Shown here: positions 3,657-24,444 of the stretch, in pieces
Layout of the letters: each line of letters starts with the position of its first letter
Position numbering within the stretch: position 1 is the stretch's first letter
Origin: Clostridiales bacterium
Lineage (GTDB): Bacteria > Bacillota > Clostridia > Christensenellales > UBA1242
Length of the DNA: 64,000 nt
NCBI GenBank assembly: GCA_003524095.1
Contig: DOEE01000003.1
Span: 89,171-153,170, forward strand
Reading direction: 5' to 3'
Notes under the pieces: generated by a model
Seen by the model: only the letters and a program-made list of their open reading frames with translations
Databases searched by the model: none
Told to the model about the DNA's origin: nothing
Made by a program: the position numbers and the translations under genes

Positions 3657-4766
3657 ATGGCAAAAGCAAAAAGTTTTTGGAAAATTTTACTCAAAGTAAT
3701 TGCAATAATACTCGCCTTTTTGATACTGGTAGTTGGGACATATTTTGCATATGTTTGTATTCAATACAATCGAATTGAAGATAACCAAAAAATAGATGTT
3801 GTGGGAAACAAAGAAAGTGTTGTTAGGCTAGATACTGAGTACTCGATAACAACATATAATATTGGATTTGGGGCGTATTCACAAGACTTTTCGTTTTTTA
3901 TGGATTCTGGGGAAACTTTGGATGGCCAAAAACTTCAAGGCACAGGAAGTGTTGCCAAGTCCAAAGATACAGTAATCTTTAATACAAATGGTGCAATAGA
4001 TACCATTAAGAGTGTAAATCCAGACTTTGCCTTTTTTCAAGAAGTAGATGTCAAGGCGGACAGAAGCCACAAAGTGAATCAGTATCAAGAGATTCAAAAG
4101 AATTTTGAAGATTATTCGAGTTCAATTTCAATTAATTTTCATAGCGCATATCTATTTTATCCATTAACTTCGCCACATGGCAAGACCGATGCTGGAATTA
4201 CAACTCTTTCAAAGTATAATATTACCAGTGCTACACGTCGAAGTTTGCCAGTAGACGAGAGTTTTCCGACCAAGTTCTTTGACCTAGATAGATGCTTTCA
4301 AGTGACTAGACTACCTATTCAAGAAAGTTCCAAAGAATTAGTGTTAATTAATATCCACTTAAGTGCTTATGACGAAGGTGGAAAGGTTAGAGCTAGACAA
4401 CTAGAAATGCTTAATGGCGTTTTGAATGAAGAAAAGCAACTAGGCAATTATGTTATAGTTGGTGGAGATTTTAATCACGACATAGCAGGTTCAATTGGAA
4501 CATGGGAGACAAACAGAAAACAACCCGAGTGGGTGTTTGTTCTAAATAGCGATAATTTGGCAGACGGCTTTAGATTTGTAAGTTCCAAAAATGCTCCAAC
4601 GTGTAGGTCGACAGATACAGCTTATATTAAGGGCGAAAGTTATACGGTTGTTTTGGACGGATTTATTTGTTCAGATAATATCACCGACATTAATATTTCA
4701 AACATAGATACAGATTTTATGTATTCCGACCACAATCCAGCCAAGATGACATTTAAACTTGTGTAA
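3657..4766 (+). CDS. endonuclease/exonuclease/phosphatase (EEP) family protein, membrane anchored
   Basis: N-terminal TM helix. EEP signatures FFQEVD, INIHLSAY, GGDFNHD and SDHNP. SD AAGGAGAAAC lies upstream. Confidence 0.8.
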   Translation: MAKAKSFWKILLKVIAIILAFLILVVGTYFAYVCIQYNRIEDNQKIDVVGNKESVVRLDTEYSITTYNIGFGAYSQDFSFFMDSGETLDGQKLQGTGSVAKSKDTVIFNTNGAIDTIKSVNPDFAFFQEVDVKADRSHKVNQYQEIQKNFEDYSSSISINFHSAYLFYPLTSPHGKTDAGITTLSKYNITSATRRSLPVDESFPTKFFDLDRCFQVTRLPIQESSKELVLINIHLSAYDEGGKVRARQLEMLNGVLNEEKQLGNYVIVGGDFNHDIAGSIGTWETNRKQPEWVFVLNSDNLADGFRFVSSKNAPTCRSTDTAYIKGESYTVVLDGFICSDNITDINISNIDTDFMYSDHNPAKMTFKLV

Positions 4767-4786
4767 TTGGCGTTTTTAGACAGAAT

Positions 4787-4817
4787 GAATAATTCTGTCT
4801 ATTTTTTAACTCTTTTC
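4787..4817 (+). terminator. rho-independent terminator
   Basis: 10-bp perfect stem TAGACAGAAT/ATTCTGTCTA, 5-nt loop, then TTTTTT. Confidence 0.8.
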
Positions 4818-6714: not shown

Positions 6715-6869
6715 ACTTTTTCTCCCTATTTGTTTTTTTAATTTTAGTAAATTTTGAAAGATTAGTCAAATTAATTTAAATTTAAAAAACACTTATTAAA
6801 AATTTGTGTTATCTATGTTTTTTTGTTAAAATATCTAAAATATGATAGGATTTTAAAGATTTTAAACAT

Positions 6870-18367: not shown

Positions 18368-19009
18368 ATGAAAACAAAACACAAAATTTTTAGTTTAATA
18401 ATGGCTGTATTGCTAATCATTCCAGCAATGTTTTTCTTAACTGCTTGTGGTGATAATGGGAATAATCATTCGGGTGGAAATCTAAATTTGCATGATAGTT
18501 CCAAATGGTTTACAGAAACTGAGTTGTCTGCAGTTGGACTATCTAATTTAACAGCACCAACTGGTCTTAATGGAACAATCTCTTCTAGTAGTGATTCTGG
18601 GTTTAATGATGGTTACTCATTTTCGCAACCTTGCGACAATGTCGACCTATTGGAACAAAATGCAGAAATTTATTTAAACTATTTCAAAACCAACTATGAT
18701 GGATATTTTGGACATATTTCTGACAATCACGGTGTAGTGTATGGCGAATACGAAACATGGTATGTCTTGGAACAAAGTAACAATTTAAGTGATTATTTTG
18801 GTAATAATCCAAGTAAACTTTATAAATTTTACTATGTTACAAACCATGATACAGACGAACGAGGATACTTTGTTAGAAATTCGGTTTACACCCTTGAAAT
18901 TAGATATGAATTTAACGCATCAACGAACCAATATTTGTTTAAACTATTTATAGAAAAAGCAGATACATCACCTAATGGAATATTTTCATATTACTATAAA
19001 ATGAAATAA
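18368..19009 (+). CDS. hypothetical lipoprotein
   Basis: SD AAGGTGA. Signal peptide with lipobox FLTAC (Cys27). Confidence 0.65.
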   Translation: MKTKHKIFSLIMAVLLIIPAMFFLTACGDNGNNHSGGNLNLHDSSKWFTETELSAVGLSNLTAPTGLNGTISSSSDSGFNDGYSFSQPCDNVDLLEQNAEIYLNYFKTNYDGYFGHISDNHGVVYGEYETWYVLEQSNNLSDYFGNNPSKLYKFYYVTNHDTDERGYFVRNSVYTLEIRYEFNASTNQYLFKLFIEKADTSPNGIFSYYYKMK

Positions 19010-19041
19010 ATTTAATAAAATACAATTCAAATGTATATAAA

Positions 19042-19090
19042 ATGAGAGCAAGACTAACTCCGTAGAGTTAAATACCGCTCTCATTTTTTT
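19042..19090 (+). terminator. rho-independent terminator
   Basis: Outer stem ATGAGAGC/GCTCTCAT with inner stem AACTC/GAGTT, followed by T7. Confidence 0.75.
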
Positions 19091-19169
19091 GACTAAAACA
19101 ACATTATAAAAAAATTCAATAGAATTTTAGATATTATATATTCAAAAATTATTAGATTAAACTATGAGA

Positions 19170-19294
19170 GAACGGAGTGAACGGTAATTCTCGGGTGGCA
19201 GTTGAAAACTGACGAGTACCCGAGTACAAAGGGGTTCCCCTGGGTTCTAGCAAACAAAGTTTGCTAAGCAAGTAAAACTTGCAAAATTCCGTTC
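19170..19294. ncRNA. candidate structured small RNA / hairpin-module cluster (unknown class, strand unresolved)
   Basis: 7-bp closing helix GAACGGA (19170-76) / TCCGTTC (19288-94) encloses four helices. They are CTCGGGT/ACCCGAG (with inner CAGTT-gaa-AACTG), GGGG-tt-CCCC, TAGCAAAC-aaa-GTTTGCTA and GCAAGT-aaa-ACTTGC. No ORF. Confidence 0.3.
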
Positions 19295-19304
19295 AAGCAA
19301 AATA

Positions 19305-19330
19305 AAAAACAGCGGGTTTGGCGCTGTTTT
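19305..19330 (-). terminator. terminator of tRNA-Ser
   Basis: On the minus strand: AAAACAGCG-ccaaacc-CGCTGTTTT followed by TTATTTT, immediately 3' of the tRNA. Confidence 0.8.
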
Positions 19331-19334
19331 GGAT

Positions 19335-19422
19335 TGGCGCAGAGACCGGGATTTGAACCCGGGGTACGTTTCCGTACACAGCCGTTCCAAGACTGCACGA
19401 TCGACCACTCTGACATCTCTGC
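19335..19422 (-). tRNA. tRNA-Ser (anticodon GGA), class II, CCA encoded
   Basis: Hand-folded. The acceptor GCAGAGA/TCTCTGC is 7/7 paired, with G73 and CCA. The anticodon arm is CAGTC-TTGGAAC-GGCTG. The long variable arm is GTACG-gaaa-CGTAC and the T arm is CCGGG-TTCAAAT-CCCGG. The D stem is poorly paired (see findings). Confidence 0.8.
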
Positions 19423-19428
19423 ATATAA
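19405..19428. repeat. 24-nt direct repeat, copy A (tRNA-Ser nt 1-18 plus 6 nt of 5' flank)
   Basis: ccactctgacatctctgcatataa is identical to 19702-19725. Confidence 0.95.
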
Positions 19429-19474
19429 ATATTAAATTGGAAATAAGTTGATATTACATTTTGTAGGACGTGGT

Positions 19475-19701
19475 CGACGCCTAGCGTCGTTCCATAGTCC
19501 GTCAAGATAGCGGGGCATTGGCTAAAGCATACTATGCTTTACCTCCAAAGTCCGTCAGGTAAGCAGTGCATTGGCCGATACCCACTGGGTATCGCCTCCA
19601 AAGTCCGTCAAGATAGCGGGGCATTGGCTAATGTCCACTGGACATTACCTCCAAAGTCCGTCAAGTAAGCCCATCAGGGAACAATCCACAGGATTGTTCT
19701 T
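19475..19701. repeat. tandem array of hairpin modules with 53-nt period (units start 19498, 19551, 19604, 19657), preceded by a related hairpin at 19475-19489
   Basis: The linkers tccgtcaagatagcggggcattggc and cctccaaag are conserved. The 19-nt hairpins at 19523-41, 19576-94, 19629-47 and 19680-98 have unrelated but perfectly complementary 8-bp arms. Confidence 0.9.
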
Positions 19702-19725
19702 CCACTCTGACATCTCTGCATATAA
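19702..19725. repeat. 24-nt direct repeat, copy B (orphan duplicate of the tRNA-Ser 5' end)
   Basis: Exact match to 19405-19428. The sequences diverge immediately outside the repeat. Confidence 0.95.
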
Positions 19726-19747
19726 GGTTTTTATTTTTGTTATCTCT

Positions 19748-19809
19748 ATTATAATAATTTTTAAGTAAAAGGAAAAGGTGGTTATGTGCTACTTAAAAAT
19801 TATTATAAT
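19748..19809. repeat. perfect 20-bp inverted repeat with a 22-nt spacer
   Basis: ATTATAATAATTTTTAAGTA (19748-67) is the exact reverse complement of TACTTAAAAATTATTATAAT (19790-809). Confidence 0.9.
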
Positions 19810-19946
19810 TATTAGAAGATAATTGTGCAAGCTTTCAAAGAAGTTCGCTTAGATATTTTATAGTTTATTTGTATAAATGTCAAGTGTTTATTTTTATTTT
19901 GTTTGTTCATATTTTTATGTTAGAATTATAAATAAAGGAAATAAAA

Positions 19947-20780
19947 ATGAAAAGTATAATTGGTGCGGTGATTGGTGATGTCGTTGGGTCGACATACGAA
20001 GTGTTTGAATGGGAAGAAAAGCGGGTAGATTTGAAACATAGACTTGGCATTTTTGACAAAGGCGACAATCTTTTTGAAAGTGACTCAAGTTTTACAGATG
20101 ATAGTGTTTTGACTTGTGCGGTGGCAGATGCCATTTTAAAGGGCGTTGACTTTCAAATTAAATTGCGTGAGTTTGGATTAAAAGAAGAAAATCTTGGGCT
20201 AGACAAATATGGACGTAGCAAATTTGGATCTGGATTTTTAAACTGGCTTCATGGTGGTGCTAACAAAAGTTTGGGTAATGGCTGTGCTATGCGAGTATCT
20301 CCAATTGGTTATGCTTTTGACACGCTCAACGAAACTCTAAGGCAAGCGGAAATTTGTTGCAAGTGTACACATGATAATGTCGATACTATTAATATGACAA
20401 AGGCGGTTGCTGGCGCTATTTTTCTTGCAAGGAATAACAAAAGCAAAGATGAAATAAAAGAGTTTTGTTTGCATTATGTTCCGAGCCTTGATTTTGATTT
20501 GGGAGAACTTCAAAAAACTTATATGTTTGATGTCAAAGCAATTGGCTCTGTTCCGCAAGCAATATACTGTTTTTTAATCAGTAATGACTTTATGGAAACT
20601 CTCAAAAATAGTATTTCAATAGGCGGGGATAGCGATACGATTGCATGTATTGCTTGCTCAATTGCGGGAGCATATTACGGAGTACCTAACGACTTAATTG
20701 ACCGAGTTAAAAAATATATTCCGGGCGAGTATTTAAAAATTATTAATGATTTTGATAATAAATTCTGTATAGAAAAATAA
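19947..20780 (+). CDS. ADP-ribosylglycohydrolase family protein
   Basis: IGAVIGDVVGS..E, SFTDDSVL, GNGCAMRVSPIG and GGDSDTIACIACSIAGAYYG are the ARH/DraG-type metal-site motifs. SD AAAGGAAA. Confidence 0.85.
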   Translation: MKSIIGAVIGDVVGSTYEVFEWEEKRVDLKHRLGIFDKGDNLFESDSSFTDDSVLTCAVADAILKGVDFQIKLREFGLKEENLGLDKYGRSKFGSGFLNWLHGGANKSLGNGCAMRVSPIGYAFDTLNETLRQAEICCKCTHDNVDTINMTKAVAGAIFLARNNKSKDEIKEFCLHYVPSLDFDLGELQKTYMFDVKAIGSVPQAIYCFLISNDFMETLKNSISIGGDSDTIACIACSIAGAYYGVPNDLIDRVKKYIPGEYLKIINDFDNKFCIEK

Positions 20781-20844
20781 ATCGCATTTTGCTCGTATGG
20801 TTTTTTGAGTTGCAAGTATGTTATTTGCAAATTACAAAATGACT

Positions 20845-20905
20845 GTTGACAAGTAAAGACTATATGTTGACAAAAAGTATATACTTTGTGACAAGATTAT
20901 ATCTA
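20845..20905 (+). repeat. three direct repeats of about 21 bp (TGACAAR-N7-8-TATAT)
   Basis: gTTGACAAGtaaagacTATAT, gTTGACAAAaagTATATact and tGTGACAAGatTATATcta, spaced 21 and 22 bp apart, upstream of the 20956 gene. Confidence 0.6.
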
Positions 20906-20955
20906 TAACACAACATTAAACATTTTAAATAATTGTATTTTAAAAGGAGTGAAGA

Positions 20956-21987
20956 ATGCAAAAAGAATTAAAGATAAAAGGAAAATTGCTTGACGAAAAA
21001 GGACATTTGACTGAGTGTGGTTACGCCAAAAGTTTAATTAAAAATTATGATAGAAAGGATATTAAAGCGGGCAAACTCAGAATCAAAGAATGGGACTATT
21101 ATTTGATTTACAACGATGACTATGGTGTAGCGTTAACCATTGATGATAACTCATACATGGGACTCTATTCAATATCTTTTTTGGATTTCAAAAATGCAAC
21201 TGAGACTACAAAATCTCCAATGACATTTATGCCAAAGGGAAAGACTAATATGCCGTCTACTAGTGAAATCGGCGACGTGGCTGTAGAGAACAAAAACTAC
21301 AAATTTAGTTTTTTGAATGACGGAAAGACTAGAAAGTTGTTTGCCTATCTCAAAAATTTCAAAGACGGGAAAGATATAACCATAGAATTTAGTCTTACTG
21401 ATGAGCCAAAAGATAGCATGGTCATAATTACTCCGTTTAAAAATAAGCCAAAGCATTTTTATTATAACCAAAAAATTGTTGGACTCAAAGCCACTGGCAA
21501 AGTTGTACTTGGTGAAAAAGAAATAATTTTTGATAAAAACACCCGTGCAATTCTTGACTGGGGTAGAGGTGTTTGGACTTACAAAAACACTTGGTACTGG
21601 GGTGCTGGCTGTGGAGTTCAAAATGGACACGAAGTTGGTTTTAATATTGGCTACGGATTTGGAGATACAAGTAGGGCTTCCGAAAATATGTTTTTCTATG
21701 ACGGGGTTGCTCACAAACTAGATAAGGTAACTTTTGAGATTCCAAAAAAGAAAAATGGGAAAGAAGACTTTTTGTCATCGTGGAAGTTTACATCAAACGA
21801 TAAGCGATTTGAATTTGATTTTGAACCAATACTAGATAGACACGCAAATTCTAATGTTTTAATAATTTCAAGCAATCAACACCAAGTGTTTGGAAAGTTT
21901 AGCGGTTATGCGGTGCTAGATAATGGTGAAAAGGTTGTGTTAAAAGATTTTTTGGCATTCGCCGAAAAAGTTGTAAATAAATGGTAA
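20956..21987 (+). CDS. DUF2804-like protein
   Basis: SD AAGGAG. Size (343 aa) and KEWDYY / WGRGVWTYKNTWYW motifs match my recollection of DUF2804. No catalytic assignment is possible. Confidence 0.45.
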   Translation: MQKELKIKGKLLDEKGHLTECGYAKSLIKNYDRKDIKAGKLRIKEWDYYLIYNDDYGVALTIDDNSYMGLYSISFLDFKNATETTKSPMTFMPKGKTNMPSTSEIGDVAVENKNYKFSFLNDGKTRKLFAYLKNFKDGKDITIEFSLTDEPKDSMVIITPFKNKPKHFYYNQKIVGLKATGKVVLGEKEIIFDKNTRAILDWGRGVWTYKNTWYWGAGCGVQNGHEVGFNIGYGFGDTSRASENMFFYDGVAHKLDKVTFEIPKKKNGKEDFLSSWKFTSNDKRFEFDFEPILDRHANSNVLIISSNQHQVFGKFSGYAVLDNGEKVVLKDFLAFAEKVVNKW

Positions 21988-22037
21988 CAAAAAACTTTTG
22001 TATTCAATGCAATGTTGCAGATGAATACAAAAGTTTT

Positions 22038-23471
22038 TTAGTTTAGGTGTTCTTCAAGCAAATTAGATTTTAGTCTTGATAGTTGTGGTGACAAGTTAAT
22101 AATATATTTGTGTGGATTGCTTAGTCTCAGTGCTTCGTCCCAAAGTGTGTTAAGTTCGGCCTGAACCTTTTTTCTGGTTTCTTCAAGTGTTGGAAGTGGG
22201 AAAATTAACTTTCCATTTTCTATCATCTTAATTTTGATTTCTCTAACCGAATAATTGTCGATGACTTTGTTGGTCCAAGCATTGGTTGGATGCAAAAGAG
22301 TTATCTTGCCTTCTGGTTTTGGTTCGTCAAAGATTGAGATTATATCTGTTACAAATTTGCCACTTGTGTTGTCTACTAGTCTATAAATTTTTTTGAAATG
22401 CGGATTTGTTATTTTTTCTATGTTATCCGAAATTTTGATTTTTGGAATAATTTTTCCGTCTTTTTCGATTGCGACTAATTTGTATACTCCGCCAAATACT
22501 GGATTGCTTTTGGCGGTTATTAGATTTTCGCCAACCCCAAAACTATCTATTGGTGCATTTTGCAAAAGCAAACTCTCAATAATGTTTTCGTCCAAACTAT
22601 TTGAAACTACAATTTTTGTATTTTTAAGTCCCGCTTGGTCTAGCATTATTCTTGCTTTTTTGGATAAATATGCTAGGTCCCCACTATCTATTCTTATTCC
22701 TTTGAGTTCCTTGCCCATGGGTTTGAGTACTTCGTTATTAACTCTAATGGCATTTGGAATTCCGCTTTTTAGAGTATTGTATGTGTCGACAAGTAGGGTG
22801 CAGGCATCTGGAAAACTCTCAGCATAAGCCTTAAAAGATTCATATTCTGTGTCAAAACTCTGAACAAAACTATGTGCCATAGTGCCTAGTACAGGAACTC
22901 CATAATTTTTGCCAGTAATTGTGCATGCGGTTCCAACCGCTCCGGCAACATATGCATCTTTTGCTCCGTCGACAGCGGCCTCAAAACCTTGTGCTCTACG
23001 TGTGCCAAATTCCATAACTGCTCTGCCACGTGCCGACCTTACTATTCTATTTGCTTTGGTTGTAATAAGGCTCGAACGATTAAAGTATAAAAGCAATGCA
23101 GTTTCAATGAGTTGTGCTTCAAGTAGTCCCGATTTAATCGTAATAACCGGCTCGTTTGGGAAAACAATAGTTCCGTCTTCGACTGCCCACATGTCTCCCG
23201 TAAATCTAATTGATGTGAGTTTTTGTAAGTATTCTTTGGAAAATAAATTTAAACTTTCTAAATATTTAATATCGCTTGGTTCAAAGTGAAACTGAAGCAA
23301 GTATTCTACGCATTTGCTTATGCCGTTTGCAATCACAAAACTCCCGCCGTCTGGAACTTTTCTAAAAAATACATCAAAGTATGCGGTTTCGTTTTCAATA
23401 TGTTTATCAAAGTAGCCTTGACCCATTGTAAGTTCATAAAAATCCATTAGCAAGTTTTCAAATTTATCCAT
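22038..23471 (-). CDS. pncB: nicotinate phosphoribosyltransferase
   Basis: N-terminal DFYELTMGQGYF, then GTRRAQG, MAHSFVQSF and IRIDSGDL. 477 aa. Confidence 0.9.
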   Translation of the reverse strand: MDKFENLLMDFYELTMGQGYFDKHIENETAYFDVFFRKVPDGGSFVIANGISKCVEYLLQFHFEPSDIKYLESLNLFSKEYLQKLTSIRFTGDMWAVEDGTIVFPNEPVITIKSGLLEAQLIETALLLYFNRSSLITTKANRIVRSARGRAVMEFGTRRAQGFEAAVDGAKDAYVAGAVGTACTITGKNYGVPVLGTMAHSFVQSFDTEYESFKAYAESFPDACTLLVDTYNTLKSGIPNAIRVNNEVLKPMGKELKGIRIDSGDLAYLSKKARIMLDQAGLKNTKIVVSNSLDENIIESLLLQNAPIDSFGVGENLITAKSNPVFGGVYKLVAIEKDGKIIPKIKISDNIEKITNPHFKKIYRLVDNTSGKFVTDIISIFDEPKPEGKITLLHPTNAWTNKVIDNYSVREIKIKMIENGKLIFPLPTLEETRKKVQAELNTLWDEALRLSNPHKYIINLSPQLSRLKSNLLEEHLN

Positions 23472-23691
23472 ATTATCTTCCTTTTTTCTTATTTAAACAC
23501 TAATAAAAATGTTTGTCAATGAAATTAATATGTGTTTGACTATTGGCACATAAAATGTTAATATATATTTGTATATATATTAAAAATTTGATTTAATAAA
23601 TCAAAAAAATATTTTTGACTAAAAATTTCCAAAATAACTTAGTAGAGATAGTACTCAAAGTTTAGAAAAATTCCAAATCATGGAGAACAAA

Positions 23692-24444
23692 ATGACAAAT
23701 TCGGATGTTAAAAAGATTATTGACTTTATACAAGATTATTTTCAAAAAAACTCATGGGCAAAAGGTGTAGTTATTGGAATGAGTGGTGGAAAGGATAGTT
23801 TGGTTGTCGCCAAACTTTGTGTCGAAGCATTGGGAAAAGATAGAGTGCTTGGAGTAATTATGCCAAATGGTCACATGACTGACTTGAGTGATGCAATTGA
23901 TTCATGCAAACTTCTTGGAATTGACTATAATATTGTAGATATTTCAAAATCGTATAACGAGATTTTAAGTTCGGCAAAAACAGTGCTTGATGACAAACAT
24001 ATTCCTTTAAATTCAGTTACTTCAATAAACATCGCACCAAGGGTTAGAACTGCTACACTTTATGCAATTGGTGCTAGCATGGATTACTTGGTGGCGAACA
24101 CTTCTAATCTTAGCGAAGCCATGGTTGGATATACAACAAAGTGGGGAGATAATGTCGGGGATTTTGGTGTTATTGCTAACTTTACAAAAAGCGAAGTTTG
24201 TAAAATAGGACTTCTTTTGGGACTTCCTGAAAAACTAGTTTACAAAGTACCAAGTGACGGACTTTCTGGAAAATCCGACGAAGAAAAATTAGGATTTTCT
24301 TACAAAAATTTAGATGAGTTTATAAGACAAGGAAAGTTAAGTTCGGACCATGACAAAATCCTTAGAATGCACAAAAACTCCGAGCACAAAAGAATTGGCG
24401 TGGTTAAATACTCAAACAATTTGCCAAATCATTTTGAAAATTAA
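23692..24444 (+). CDS. nadE: ammonia-dependent NAD+ synthetase
   Basis: PP-loop GMSGGKDS and TTKWGDNVGDF. The ORF opens at 23680, but GGAG at 23682-85 is a good SD for ATG 23692. Confidence 0.88.
   Translation: MTNSDVKKIIDFIQDYFQKNSWAKGVVIGMSGGKDSLVVAKLCVEALGKDRVLGVIMPNGHMTDLSDAIDSCKLLGIDYNIVDISKSYNEILSSAKTVLDDKHIPLNSVTSINIAPRVRTATLYAIGASMDYLVANTSNLSEAMVGYTTKWGDNVGDFGVIANFTKSEVCKIGLLLGLPEKLVYKVPSDGLSGKSDEEKLGFSYKNLDEFIRQGKLSSDHDKILRMHKNSEHKRIGVVKYSNNLPNHFEN

Follow-up and report, generated by a model that had tools for sequence, protein, structure and literature searches.

A possible modular, tRNA-derived 5′ leader of tRNA-Ser(GGA) in uncultured gut Clostridia

What does a tandem array of sequence-variable hairpins do directly upstream of a tRNA gene, and how did it come to be there? 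In the window, by which we mean the whole 64-kb stretch of DNA analysed here, the array at 19475-19700 consists of a terminal hairpin and four 53-nt units, and is bounded by a 24-nt repeat containing nt 1-18 of tRNA-Ser(GGA) (Table 1). A sequence-only reading of this DNA had described a 53-nt array of hairpins capped by an exact 24-nt copy of the tRNA start, and both descriptions were borne out. TRF gives a 53-nt period over 19491-19670, and a repeat search of the window recovers three 74-nt copies spaced exactly 53 nt apart as well as an exact 24-nt direct repeat (19405-19428 and 19702-19725, 100% identical), with the hairpins as described. Each hairpin is flanked by UGG and CCA, with UUGG/CCAA at its base, and the terminal hairpin overlaps with its 3′ arm a short antisense copy of the tRNA D-loop region, here called the anti-D element. 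Some details needed correction. The first three of the supposed four 8-bp hairpins are of that length, but the fourth has 9 bp (GAACAATCC/GGATTGTTC, 19679-19699); likewise, a 34-nt linker is conserved as claimed, but the linkers are not near-invariant throughout, the one at 19648-19678 being of different make-up with two 13-nt sub-repeats. A diverged linker copy suspected on the other side of the tRNA (19287-19322) gave no nhmmer hit at E<=10 and has no counterpart 3′ of the tRNA in locus L031, so that its supposed role in forming the terminator is unsupported; the terminator-like hairpin itself is present (Table 1).

Table 1. Features of the tRNA-Ser(GGA) locus in the window, ordered by position
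Feature	Position	Strand	Basis or remark
Terminator-like hairpin and T run, 3′ of the tRNA	19306-19330	minus	terminator scan
Complete tRNA-Ser(GGA) with encoded CCA	19335-19422	minus	ARAGORN and Rfam (RF00005, 39.3 bits)
AT-rich spacer between array and tRNA	19423-19469	minus	fast-evolving; no convincing promoter
Anti-D element, UCGACCAC on the tRNA strand	19470-19477	minus	exact reverse complement of tRNA nt 15-22
Terminal hairpin, CGACGC UAG GCGUCG	19475-19489	minus	sequence reading
Last linker, 3′ end UAUGGAA instead of UUUGGAGG	19490-19522	minus	pattern and profile search
Hairpin D, 8 bp, 3-nt loop	19523-19541	minus	sequence reading
Variant 34-nt linker	19542-19575	minus	sequence and profile search
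Hairpin C, 8 bp, 3-nt loop	19576-19594	minus	sequence reading
Conserved 34-nt linker, GCCAAUGCCCCGCUAUCUUGACGGACUUUGGAGG on the tRNA strand	19595-19628	minus	pattern and profile search
Hairpin B, 8 bp, 3-nt loop	19629-19647	minus	sequence reading
A-type linker: two 13-nt sub-repeats and UUUGGAGG	19648-19678	minus	tRNA strand CCUGAUGGGC UUA CUUGACGGAC UUUGGAGG
Hairpin A, 9 bp, 3-nt loop	19679-19699	minus	tRNA strand GAACAAUCC UGU GGAUUGUUC; directly after the distal copy
Distal partial tRNA copy	19702-19725	minus	nt 1-18 = 19719->19702; 6-nt 5′ flank = 19720-19725
Perfect 20-bp AT-rich inverted repeat, 22-nt loop	19748-19809	unassigned	between promoter and distal copy
Sigma-70-type promoter, TTGACA-17-TAAAAT	19855-19883	minus	promoter scan; predicted start ~19848

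The array is one non-dispersed locus per genome. We recovered 12 strain-level loci from the window's species group and six from more distant Clostridia, and the same architecture was found at every tRNA-Ser(GGA) locus recovered. Thirteen loci were reached independently of the array sequence, L014-L023 via the ARH protein and L045, L046 and L048 via signal peptidase homologues. The array is present in all of them, as it is in L055-L057, which were reached via a gene neighbouring it. Crossing-over at the duplicated tRNA 5′ end would remove the array while preserving the gene, but no array-less allele occurs among the 13 array-independent loci; the reciprocal duplication, a whole module in tandem, was seen twice (L018, L037). 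Seven lineages share the layout of distal copy, hairpin, modules, terminal hairpin with CCAC, and a spacer of ~43-56 nt. The repeat-bounded segment is non-coding and measures 147-297 nt in single-module loci. A synteny search via homologues of a 213-aa neighbour led to other tRNAs (Arg, Met) or to none and to no array, and in three further signal-peptidase look-ups the tRNA was absent.

Searches for further copies, suggested by the sequence-only reading, returned a single tRNA-linked locus in the window and no dispersed copies in a pattern scan of 185,579 species genomes. The latter found one stretch in each of two Clostridia genomes; its other seven matches were unrelated, mostly GC-rich sequence. 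A metagenome pattern scan added one true locus (L037) and four chance matches. The 34-nt linker was found nowhere else in the window (pattern search with <=3 mismatches; nhmmer linker profile), and across 485 kb of DNA the linker profile matched only tRNA-Ser loci and unrelated, pattern-selected ones. Distant blastn produced no match to the array in phage and plasmid collections, and two viral-contig pattern scans yielded coding repeats only, or nothing. REP/BIME and BOX elements also combine palindromic units and conserved linkers in tandem at variable copy number, but they occur as tens to hundreds of dispersed copies per genome, whereas this array occurs once and always at tRNA-Ser(GGA). 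The earlier suggestion of a BOX-like repeat was therefore abandoned together with REP/BIME and MITE-type elements, all of which require many dispersed copies (none among the 185,579 genomes or with the linker profile). Within ~5 kb, the window ORFs encode DUF6273, M64 peptidase, GNAT, ARH, DUF2804, NAPRTase and NadE domains besides unknowns (Pfam). Next to the array on the plus-strand side comes ARH or, in most strains, a three-gene insert, and no protein gene is consistently adjacent across lineages according to Pfam scans and precomputed gene tables.

Promoter predictions suggest on which strand the array would be read. Within 18900-20000, the promoter in Table 1 scores best, at 11/12. The tool scan covered five lineages, and in each the top sigma-70-type site (10-11/12, with TTGACA as -35) precedes the distal copy on the tRNA strand, with equivalent TTGACA promoters in L048, L046, L045 and L031; in L055-L057 we read TTGACA-17-TAAAAT at the same place by eye and count these as two more lineages, giving seven. 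Scans found no promoter directly before the tRNA proper in the five scanned lineages, no promoter-like site on the tRNA strand of the spacer 19423-19469 in the window, and no convincing one on the plus strand, where only 9/12 matches occur, the chance level for such AT-rich DNA. Because the sole strong promoter sits upstream of the distal tRNA copy, the array is probably part of a 5′ leader transcribed with the tRNA; from the consensus hexamers, and only from these, we infer transcription and processing. Of the hypotheses in the sequence-only reading, a structured leader co-transcribed with the tRNA fits best, given that the only strong promoter is predicted ahead of the distal copy in each of the seven lineages. 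The window shows a rising cumulative GC skew and has most of its long ORFs on the plus strand, which makes a head-on orientation of the tRNA relative to replication probable.

The linkers carry a sub-repeat, C(Y)UGAYGGRC, which recurs in all lineages and is repeated 2-8 times per leader. In L055 and L056, three sub-repeats stand in tandem, and a 3-nt AAU after each of the first two creates a 13-nt period. The modules resemble tRNA nt 8-18; judged by this resemblance, they are derived from the tRNA's own 5′ third and the sub-repeat is a diverged copy of nt ~8-18. Their consensus GACGGAC differs from the local tRNA identically in all lineages. The duplicated segment at the distal end consists of tRNA nt 1-18 and a variable upstream leader of 18-58 nt. 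In other lineages the distal copy matches the local version of the tRNA, except in L056 (three mismatches, at nt 6, 8 and 9) and L014 (shifted junction). Between the window and L031, unit B with a linker is 83% identical, the tRNA 75% and the spacer ~55%, the last being typical of spacer identity between lineages; the comparison with L028 gives 96% for the unit and 71% for the spacer.

Across the hairpins, 134 of 140 stem pairs are Watson-Crick and none is G.U, the six exceptions being non-wobble mismatches. All nine stem pairs change on both sides across lineages, and the covariation score of 0.70 compares with 0.28 in shuffles (0/500 reach 0.70) and <=0.15 for slid partners, so the arm covariation that had been proposed as a check was found in homologous loci. 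Orthologues of hairpin A (L048, L046, L056) differ on both sides at four pairs, a relative of hairpin B in L031/L045 shows one U-A to C-G double change, and the hairpin C variant CGACACCC/GGGUGUCG of L015 and L028 is compensatory. The sole polymorphic intermediate is a chimeric hairpin C with one mismatch (L016, L018, L037), the mismatch being C.A in the tRNA-strand reading and G.U in that of the plus strand. One L046 hairpin has decayed. Each strain has 1-5 variable hairpins, drawn from a small, reshuffled repertoire (A, B, C, D and the terminal hairpin). The claim that arms share no sequence between units yet stay paired holds for the pairing, which double changes preserve, but the arms are not hypervariable; they belong to a repertoire shared among strains. 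Selection on structure, to which the sequence-only reading attributed this pattern, is in keeping with the maintained complementarity, but a total absence of wobble pairs is not what RNA-level selection usually leaves in a helix. The lack of G.U in 140 pairs fits palindrome correction at the DNA level at least as well, and RNA-structure selection is therefore not the sole reading. A role of the 8-mer arms as guides was dropped, exact matches elsewhere in the window being few and scattered, with no second full hairpin.

Taken together with CCAC, the 3′ arm of the last hairpin is reverse-complementary to the D-loop region of the local tRNA, with which it covaries. At all eight loci tested, the longest perfect leader-tRNA complement (8-13 nt) falls at exactly this place. 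The 10-nt and 13-nt complements were reached in none of 1000 shuffles, and the 8-nt ones individually only have p of about 0.05. The element tracks the tRNA next to it: UCGACCAC pairs with GUGGUCGA, and UAAACCAC with GUGGUUUA. Moreover, in L046 and L048 the terminal hairpin has a 5′ arm that duplicates the D-arm of the local tRNA (CGAUC, CGAAC). Leader-tRNA duplexes are predicted at -14 to -26 kcal/mol and exceed the terminal hairpins (-6 to -15) in stability, the duplex energies being intermolecular RNAduplex values that exclude the loop-closure penalty. In minimum-free-energy folding, an acceptor stem made with the distal copy is favoured by 3-12 kcal/mol, but this preference is almost unchanged by an in-silico mutation of CCAC in the anti-D element. 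We therefore discounted the constrained-folding test as support for a switch, for which the thermodynamic support is weak. The antisense copy of the D-loop region and the origin of the modules in the tRNA 5′ third are features beyond those in the sequence-only reading.

Does the array belong to a known kind of element? The absence of a known-family assignment was confirmed: at gathering thresholds the array matches no Rfam family, searches at E<=10 over 19000-19950 returned only tRNA above its gathering threshold with all others far below theirs, and six related loci at E<=0.05 gave only tRNA and a sub-threshold match inside it. The closest analogue, as a kind and not as a homologous family, is the set of 178-bp repeats of E. 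coli tyrT with RttR. In E. coli K-12, our repeat search finds copies 178 nt apart, the last overlapping the tyrV 3′ end, with rttR annotated inside. The tyrT-tyrV/RttR repeats (Rfam RtT, RF00391) likewise stand in tandem against a tRNA gene, with a partial copy of a tRNA end in each unit, and the array too consists of contiguous repeats with partial tRNA copies (distal nt 1-18, modules ~nt 8-18). The tyrT repeats are reportedly co-transcribed with the tRNA and released by tRNA processing; to our knowledge, their function is still obscure. They differ from the array in lying downstream and copying the tRNA 3′ end rather than upstream with the 5′ end, in a unit of 178 nt instead of 53 nt with 13-nt sub-repeats, in lacking both variable perfect hairpins and an antisense tRNA copy, and in coming from an unrelated taxon with no sequence or Rfam match to the array. 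The 3′ external transcribed spacer of E. coli leuZ is a sponge for small RNAs. It resembles what we propose here in being an RNA cut from a tRNA primary transcript by tRNA-processing enzymes that could act after release, but it is short, non-repetitive, located 3′ of the tRNA and pairs with known small RNAs, whereas the array is a 5′ repeat array.

Other classes were rejected on structural grounds. CRISPR arrays alternate conserved repeats of 21-48 nt with unique, non-self-complementary spacers of similar length, whereas the variable 19-nt segments here are hairpins from a strain-shared repertoire (six mismatched of 140 pairs), and no cas genes occur among window ORFs within ~5 kb (Pfam). ToxI-like type III antitoxins are near-identical tandem repeats of ~34-45 nt immediately upstream of a ToxN/AbiQ-family toxin gene; here the tRNA-strand neighbour is the tRNA, and ARH or the three-gene insert on the other side gives no ToxN/AbiQ Pfam match. 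Integron attC sites and CALINs carry R″/R′ core sites (RYYYAAC ... GTTRRRY) at the bases of imperfect hairpins with ORF cassettes between them, whereas the hairpin bases read UUGG/CCAA without GTTRRRY and the units are separated by 11-34-nt linkers without ORFs, in a 53-nt period that is not a multiple of three. A K-turn or box C/D reading of paired UGA motifs fits some linkers only, by eye, and is not conserved. Hairpins with GCCA as tRNA minihelices or RNase P substrates were also set aside, since pairing with the upstream UGG accounts for the CCA just as well, and the residues at -1 and +1 are not those of a typical RNase P site. A literature search found nothing relevant on tRNA-leader repeats or on rtT/tyrT. 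The array is a previously undescribed tRNA leader architecture.

Our best explanation, held tentatively, is that the array is a modular, tRNA-derived repeat that makes up most of the tRNA-Ser(GGA) 5′ leader in a clade of uncultured gut Clostridia. With the same reserve, we suggest that this recombination-prone, structured leader acts in cis on the folding or maturation of the tRNA. Transcription would start at the strong promoter 19883-19855 and run through the copy of nt 1-18, 1-5 variable hairpins with C(Y)UGAYGGRC linkers, the terminal hairpin and the AT-rich spacer into the complete tRNA and its terminator. RNase P would cut at the true 5′ end of the tRNA and free the leader. The anti-D element might alternate between its own 5′ arm and tRNA nt 13/15-20/25, and because the leader would hold this element as well as a decoy of the tRNA 5′ end, it could guide, delay or partition pre-tRNA folding and 5′ maturation. 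Number and order of units may shift by slipped or unequal recombination between similar linkers or between the two tRNA 5′ copies. Quite unlikely, in our view, is a two-state precursor, which would be either leader plus tRNA or a tRNA-Ser with a modular D-loop insertion of 150-300 nt, the balance between them being regulated. With the end of the repeat placed exactly at G18, the same DNA can be read both ways. In the fold with the insertion, the acceptor strand would come from the distal copy, the proximal 5′ third being held by the anti-D element. RNase P cleavage at the distal site would then produce a large tRNA-like RNA, its acceptor, anticodon, variable and T arms all intact, that may have a function of its own.

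An origin without function is somewhat unlikely by our estimate, yet it accounts for much of the evidence. The array would then be a neutral or near-neutral by-product of DNA mechanics at a highly transcribed, apparently head-on tRNA gene, where fragments of the tRNA 5′ end are duplicated, in direct as well as inverted orientation, through slippage, unequal crossing-over and template switching. Perfect arms would be maintained by templated repair within each palindrome, and the leader would be tolerated since RNase P removes it. The missing G.U pairs and the strictly double-sided changes agree with this, as do the resemblance of modules and terminal hairpin to direct and inverted copies of tRNA nt 8-25, the variation of copy number and order between strains (with chimeric hairpins, shifted junctions and whole-module duplication), the 13-nt period in L055/L056, the decayed hairpin in L046 and the probable head-on orientation (GC skew, plus-strand ORFs). 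Against it, distant lineages differ less in the linker than in the tRNA, and far less than in the adjacent spacer, GACGGAC departs from the local tRNA alike in all lineages and so is not simply re-copied, none of the 13 array-independent loci has lost the array though a simple crossover would delete it, and the layout is kept across seven lineages. It is unlikely that the leader acts instead in trans after RNase P release, as a multivalent RNA displaying C(Y)UGAYGGRC and UGG motifs between insulating hairpins and titrating a protein or RNA, with the tRNA as a 3′ processing signal. A conserved single-stranded motif present 2-8 times per leader, hairpins that differ from one another as if to fold locally without cross-pairing, copy number that varies between strains and the precedents of RttR, an RNA from a tRNA transcript annotated within the 178-bp repeats by tyrV, and of the leuZ spacer would all suit such a role. 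On the other hand, no protein gene is consistently adjacent across lineages, and the antisense copy of the local tRNA D-loop region is left unexplained. The Shine-Dalgarno (SD) or GGA sponge of the sequence-only reading is weak and was dropped in both its CsrA-type and anti-SD forms, since GGA and GGAGG are not conserved across lineages (L045 has GGG).

The remaining alternatives locate the function on the other strand or in foreign elements. A functional plus strand, giving either an RNA antisense to the leader of the pre-tRNA and to the 5′ end of the tRNA, or single-stranded DNA hairpins extruded on the lagging-strand template, is improbable. The plus strand does fold better (z of -4.9 vs -2.0 for the tRNA strand), G.U occurs there, against A.C on the other strand, in the helices GGGC/GUCC and GUGG/CCAU, the chimeric hairpin C is wobble-paired only there, and all-Watson-Crick stems are a requirement of DNA hairpins. 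Its promoter matches are nevertheless at chance level, the strong conserved promoter faces the opposite way, and the extended GGGC/GUCC helix is limited to the window's species group and broken by one linker variant in the window itself. Integrating elements at tRNA genes normally replace the 3′ part. That the array is the remnant or miniature of an integrative element or other insertion, with the tRNA repeats as attL/attR or target-site duplication, is highly improbable, although direct repeats of a tRNA segment bound the array, the tandem double module (L018, L037) resembles tandem accretion and the sub-repeats are readable as arm-type binding sites. What is duplicated is the tRNA 5′ end with 18-58 nt of upstream leader, no integrase or recombinase was found among the neighbours (Pfam and precomputed gene tables; L031 neighbours in part), the content between the repeats is tRNA-derived and homologous across lineages, and phage and plasmid collections or viral contigs gave no match. 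Both a tRNA-bounded integrated element and the site-specific recombination remnant considered in the sequence-only reading were rejected because the 5′ and not the 3′ part of the tRNA is duplicated, no integrase lies nearby and the layout is conserved. Least credible is a guide-RNA array of the CRISPR or TIGR stem-loop type. According to PMC12045711 and bioRxiv 10.64898/2026.09.09.750476, stem-loop TIGR arrays contain variable, consistently palindromic sequences and repeats that begin with UG and end with CCA, and PMC12045711 describes a TIGR-Tas unit with two variable 8-12-nt spacers, each lying between a box C (CCA) and a box D (UG). The likeness (PMC12045711) lies in tandem units, sequence-variable but always-paired palindromes and short UG/CCA flanks, each hairpin here standing between UGG and CCA. 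However, what varies here is the pair of arms of a single tight hairpin (3-nt loop) instead of two independent 8-12-nt spacers, the stretches from CCA to UGG are conserved rather than variable, and the array is tied to one tRNA gene. Neither Nop/Tas nor Cas proteins were found among the neighbours by Pfam scans and precomputed gene tables, and specifically no Nop domain among the scanned neighbours (window, L015, L048 and, in part, L031) or in the gene tables (L045-L048, L055-L057).

If the leader is functional, it would represent a new build of tRNA gene in which a strain-variable array of the gene's own 5′ end parts the promoter from the tRNA, and the decoy 5′ end and antisense D-loop copy would make regulated folding and maturation of a bacterial tRNA directly testable. 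The two-state reading, if true, would imply a bacterial tRNA maturation switch or a new class of tRNA-like RNA. Even as a by-product, the locus would offer natural palindromes that remain perfectly paired through double changes without wobble intermediates, a warning that 'compensatory' substitutions in DNA palindromes are no proof of RNA-level selection. Further, partial tRNA repeats are not always marks of integrated mobile elements, and a variable-number repeat locus of this kind could be useful to tell apart strains of an uncultured human-gut Clostridia species.

Two smaller observations concern the flanks of the array. The three-gene insert at the start of ARH was set aside as the same kind of duplication, as only ~25-30 nt of ribosome-binding-site region are shared. 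The 20-bp inverted repeat at 19748-19809 also occurs in L028 and L037 and is specific to the window's species group.

The array upstream of tRNA-Ser(GGA) is real and conserved, occurs at a single locus and is tied to this tRNA gene; it is neither a chance occurrence nor a dispersed repeat nor any known RNA family. Its linker had no other occurrence in the 64-kb window (pattern search and nhmmer), Rfam gave no match at gathering thresholds, and at permissive thresholds the tRNA alone passed its gathering score, both in the window and in six related loci. Distant blastn found no match to the array in phage or plasmid collections, and pattern scans of viral contigs gave no find. A scan with a 21-nt degenerate linker pattern of one genome per species (185,579 species) matched nine stretches, of which two were real (L028 and L031, each a single locus in uncultured Clostridia), and the same kind of scan in JGI metagenomes added one further locus, L037. 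Counting only loci reached without array sequence, the array was present at 13 of 13 tRNA-Ser(GGA) loci.

A repeat search of the window placed three 74-nt copies at a spacing of exactly 53 nt upstream of the tRNA. The sequence-only reading had described the array accurately, save for three corrections: the fourth hairpin, given as 8 bp with the common linker, has 9 bp and a linker of a different type; the arms are not hypervariable but drawn from a small repertoire; and the supposed diverged linker copy at 19287-19322 does not match the linker profile.

Features of the tRNA-Ser(GGA) locus in the window
Feature	Position	Strand or placement	Details
Distal copy of tRNA nt 1-18	19719-19702	first in order on tRNA strand	
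Hairpin A	19699-19679	second on tRNA strand, after distal copy	9 bp
A-type linker		tRNA strand, directly after hairpin A	
Hairpins B, C, D			8 bp each, AGU loop; 34-nt linker GCCAAUGCCCCGCUAUCUUGACGGACUUUGGAGG between them
Terminal hairpin (T)		tRNA strand, after hairpin D	CGACGC-UAG-GCGUCG, then ACCAC
AT-rich spacer		between terminal hairpin/ACCAC and tRNA	47 nt
tRNA-Ser(GGA)	19335-19422	minus	Rfam tRNA match, 39.3 bits
Terminator-like hairpin	19306-19330	3' of tRNA-Ser(GGA)	
53-nt period	19491-19670	upstream of tRNA	TRF
Exact 24-nt direct repeat	19405-19428 / 19702-19725		repeat search

The element belongs to the tRNA-linked tandem repeats and has an unusual palindromic, tRNA-derived design. 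The linker is composed of ~13-nt sub-repeats, C(Y)UGAYGGRC, of which L055/L056 carry three in tandem, with AAU after the first two giving a 13-nt period. UGACGGAC-UUUGG-ARG parallels tRNA nt 8-18 (UGUCGGAG-UGG in L046 and L048), a likeness judged by eye, and the junction GAGUUGGAGG in L014 records recombination between tRNA copy and linker. At the terminal hairpin, the 5' arm is a copy of the local D-arm (CGAUC in L046, CGAAC in L048), and the 3' arm plus CCAC(UC), the anti-D element, matches local tRNA nt 13/15-20/25 exactly in reverse complement. This complement reaches 13 nt in L046, with 10 nt in L048 and 9 nt in L057, and is 8 nt long in the five other loci (window, L028, L031, L045, L056); it is the longest between leader and tRNA in every case, and changes in step with the tRNA (UCGACCAC pairs with GUGGUCGA, UAAACCAC with GUGGUUUA). 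The distal copy likewise tracks the local tRNA version, except in L056, where it has three mismatches.

Among contigs from human-gut metagenomes and MAGs with an identical neighbouring ADP-ribosylglycohydrolase (L014-L023), every one carried the tRNA and the array. Hairpin order was A-B-C-D-T in the window, L017 and L021, B-C-D-T in L014, C'-A-B-T in L015, C*-D-T in L016, A-B-T in L019, L022 and L023, A-D-T in L020, C'-B-T in L028, and A-B-C*-D-T followed by a second tRNA 5' copy and A-T in L018 and L037 (C', variant and C*, chimeric one-mismatch forms of C). The locus is thus a recombination-prone variable-number repeat of few module types. L018 and L037 (ULTU01039344.1; L037 1100-1800) hold the tRNA 5' end three times and two complete tandem modules, as a duplication by unequal crossing-over between copies would be expected to leave. 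More distant Clostridia loci (L031, L045, L046, L048, L055/L056, L057), reached through homologues of an array-neighbouring signal peptidase and HipA-like gene, all had the same layout with different flanking genes, spacers and even tRNA (identity to the window 95% in L048, 75% in L031).

In an alignment of 14 distinct units, two-sided changes occurred at all nine stem pairs and one-sided changes at none; the covariation score was 0.70, whereas shuffles gave 0.28 (0 of 500 reached 0.70) and slid partners no more than 0.15. In the orthologous hairpin A alone, four pairs had changed from lineage to lineage. The 140 pairs of 19 distinct hairpins comprised 134 Watson-Crick pairs, six non-wobble mismatches and no G.U, so that covariation proves pairing pressure and not the level at which it acts.

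In the window and in four further lineages, the best promoter-like site sits upstream of the distal copy, on the tRNA strand (score 10-11 of 12, -35 hexamer always TTGACA), with no comparable site between array and tRNA in these five; L055-L057 have TTGACA-17-TAAAAT at the equivalent place (by eye). In L046 and L057 a mere ~10 nt separate the predicted start from the distal copy, a distance like that of an ordinary tRNA gene. Given these consensus matches, the array would most simply be the 5' leader of the pre-tRNA.

We tentatively prefer a cis-acting structured leader, in which the decoy and anti-D elements might touch the tRNA 5' third transiently while the pre-tRNA folds and is matured by RNase P. 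Predicted duplexes between anti-D and the tRNA 5' third reach -14 to -26 kcal/mol (intermolecular RNAduplex, ignoring the cost of closing a ~55-nt loop), and the terminal hairpins -6 to -15 kcal/mol. Whole-precursor MFE folds, which include neither tertiary structure nor kinetics, were run for five lineages and favoured an acceptor stem formed with the distal copy, by 3-12 kcal/mol. Given these omissions, and because in-silico mutation of CCAC within anti-D barely altered the preference, the folding results are weak. A multivalent leader RNA that is released and acts in trans is rather unlikely; a structure of the plus strand, as RNA or as single-stranded DNA, is improbable, the folding z of -4.9 on the plus strand versus -2.0 on the tRNA strand speaking for it.

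The complete lack of wobble pairs is unusual in an RNA helix and fits the templated correction of DNA quasi-palindromes; it is possible, if on the unlikely side, that slippage and template switching gave rise to the array as a by-product, at a tRNA gene that is probably head-on to replication. Identity between the window and L031 is 83% for unit B plus linker, 75% for the tRNA and ~55% for the spacer; between the window and L028 it is 96% for the unit and 71% for the spacer. The module consensus departs from each local tRNA identically in all lineages, hence simple re-copying of the tRNA does not account for the modules. Crossing-over at the two tRNA 5' copies would remove the array and leave the tRNA gene intact; of the two reciprocal products, the loci showed the duplication alone (L018, L037). 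Together, unit identity, shared consensus and absence of deletion favour a function without proving it. An integration scar is very improbable and a guide-RNA array slightly more so; CRISPR, ToxI, attC, REP/BOX and att-remnants each want a defining feature at the array. Like TIGR stem-loop arrays (PMC12045711; bioRxiv 10.64898/2026.09.09.750476), the array has palindromes of variable sequence between UG and CCA; the Tas protein that defines those systems did not appear among the neighbouring genes scanned, and the dual spacers are missing here. The closest analogue is E. coli tyrT-tyrV, whose tandem repeats of 178 bp overlap the 3' end of the tRNA and include rttR, an annotated small RNA; it is of the same kind but differs in position, polarity, unit structure and taxon, with no homology.

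One decayed hairpin in L046 (tRNA strand AAAUCUCC UGU GGACUAUU; plus strand ~148-166) has three adjacent same-base mismatches, A.A, U.U and C.C; compared with the intact L057 version, the middle of its 3' arm reads as the plain complement (CUA, not GAU), which looks like a strand-switch error. Between promoter and distal copy, the window (19748-19809) has an AT-rich inverted repeat whose 20-bp arms pair perfectly around a 22-nt loop, kept in L028 and L037 and missing from the distant lineages. Downstream of the tRNA terminator lies a structured region that distant lineages share (window 19166-19300, L031 ~6720-6860, L028 ~4640-4800), with no Rfam match. It reads CUCGGG-UGG-CAGUU GAAA ACUG-ACGAGUA-CCCGAG on the window plus strand and GUCGGG-UGG-CAC GAA GUG-ACGGGGU-CCCGAC in L031, so its outer stem covaries; next come GGUUC(N)A and a pair of perfect hairpins of different sequence in every lineage.

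On the promoter side, distant lineages carry a weakly HipA_C-like gene (364-369 aa) and an overlapping 108-110-aa gene on the strand opposite to the tRNA (L045 427-1844, L046 1416-2848, L048 1424-2853, L055-L057), separated from the array by a DUF2804 gene in L046 and L055-L057 and with no counterpart beside the arrays of L031 and the window. The window locus adjoins a cluster related to NAD / ADP-ribose metabolism (19947-24444: ADP-ribosylglycohydrolase, DUF2804, nicotinate phosphoribosyltransferase, NAD synthase). In eight of ten strain-level loci (L014-L016, L018-L020, L022, L023; 708-2847), a 2.25-kb insert of three genes (175 aa, His_Phos_1 phosphatase, 347 aa) directly precedes the ADP-ribosylglycohydrolase gene; the window (19911-19963) is without it, and the insert junctions share only ~25-30 nt of the ribosome-binding-site region. 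The window tRNA D-stem sets A12 opposite C23 (G12-C23 in L046 and L048), and its Rfam tRNA score is 39 bits versus 47 in L048 and 54 in L031/L045.
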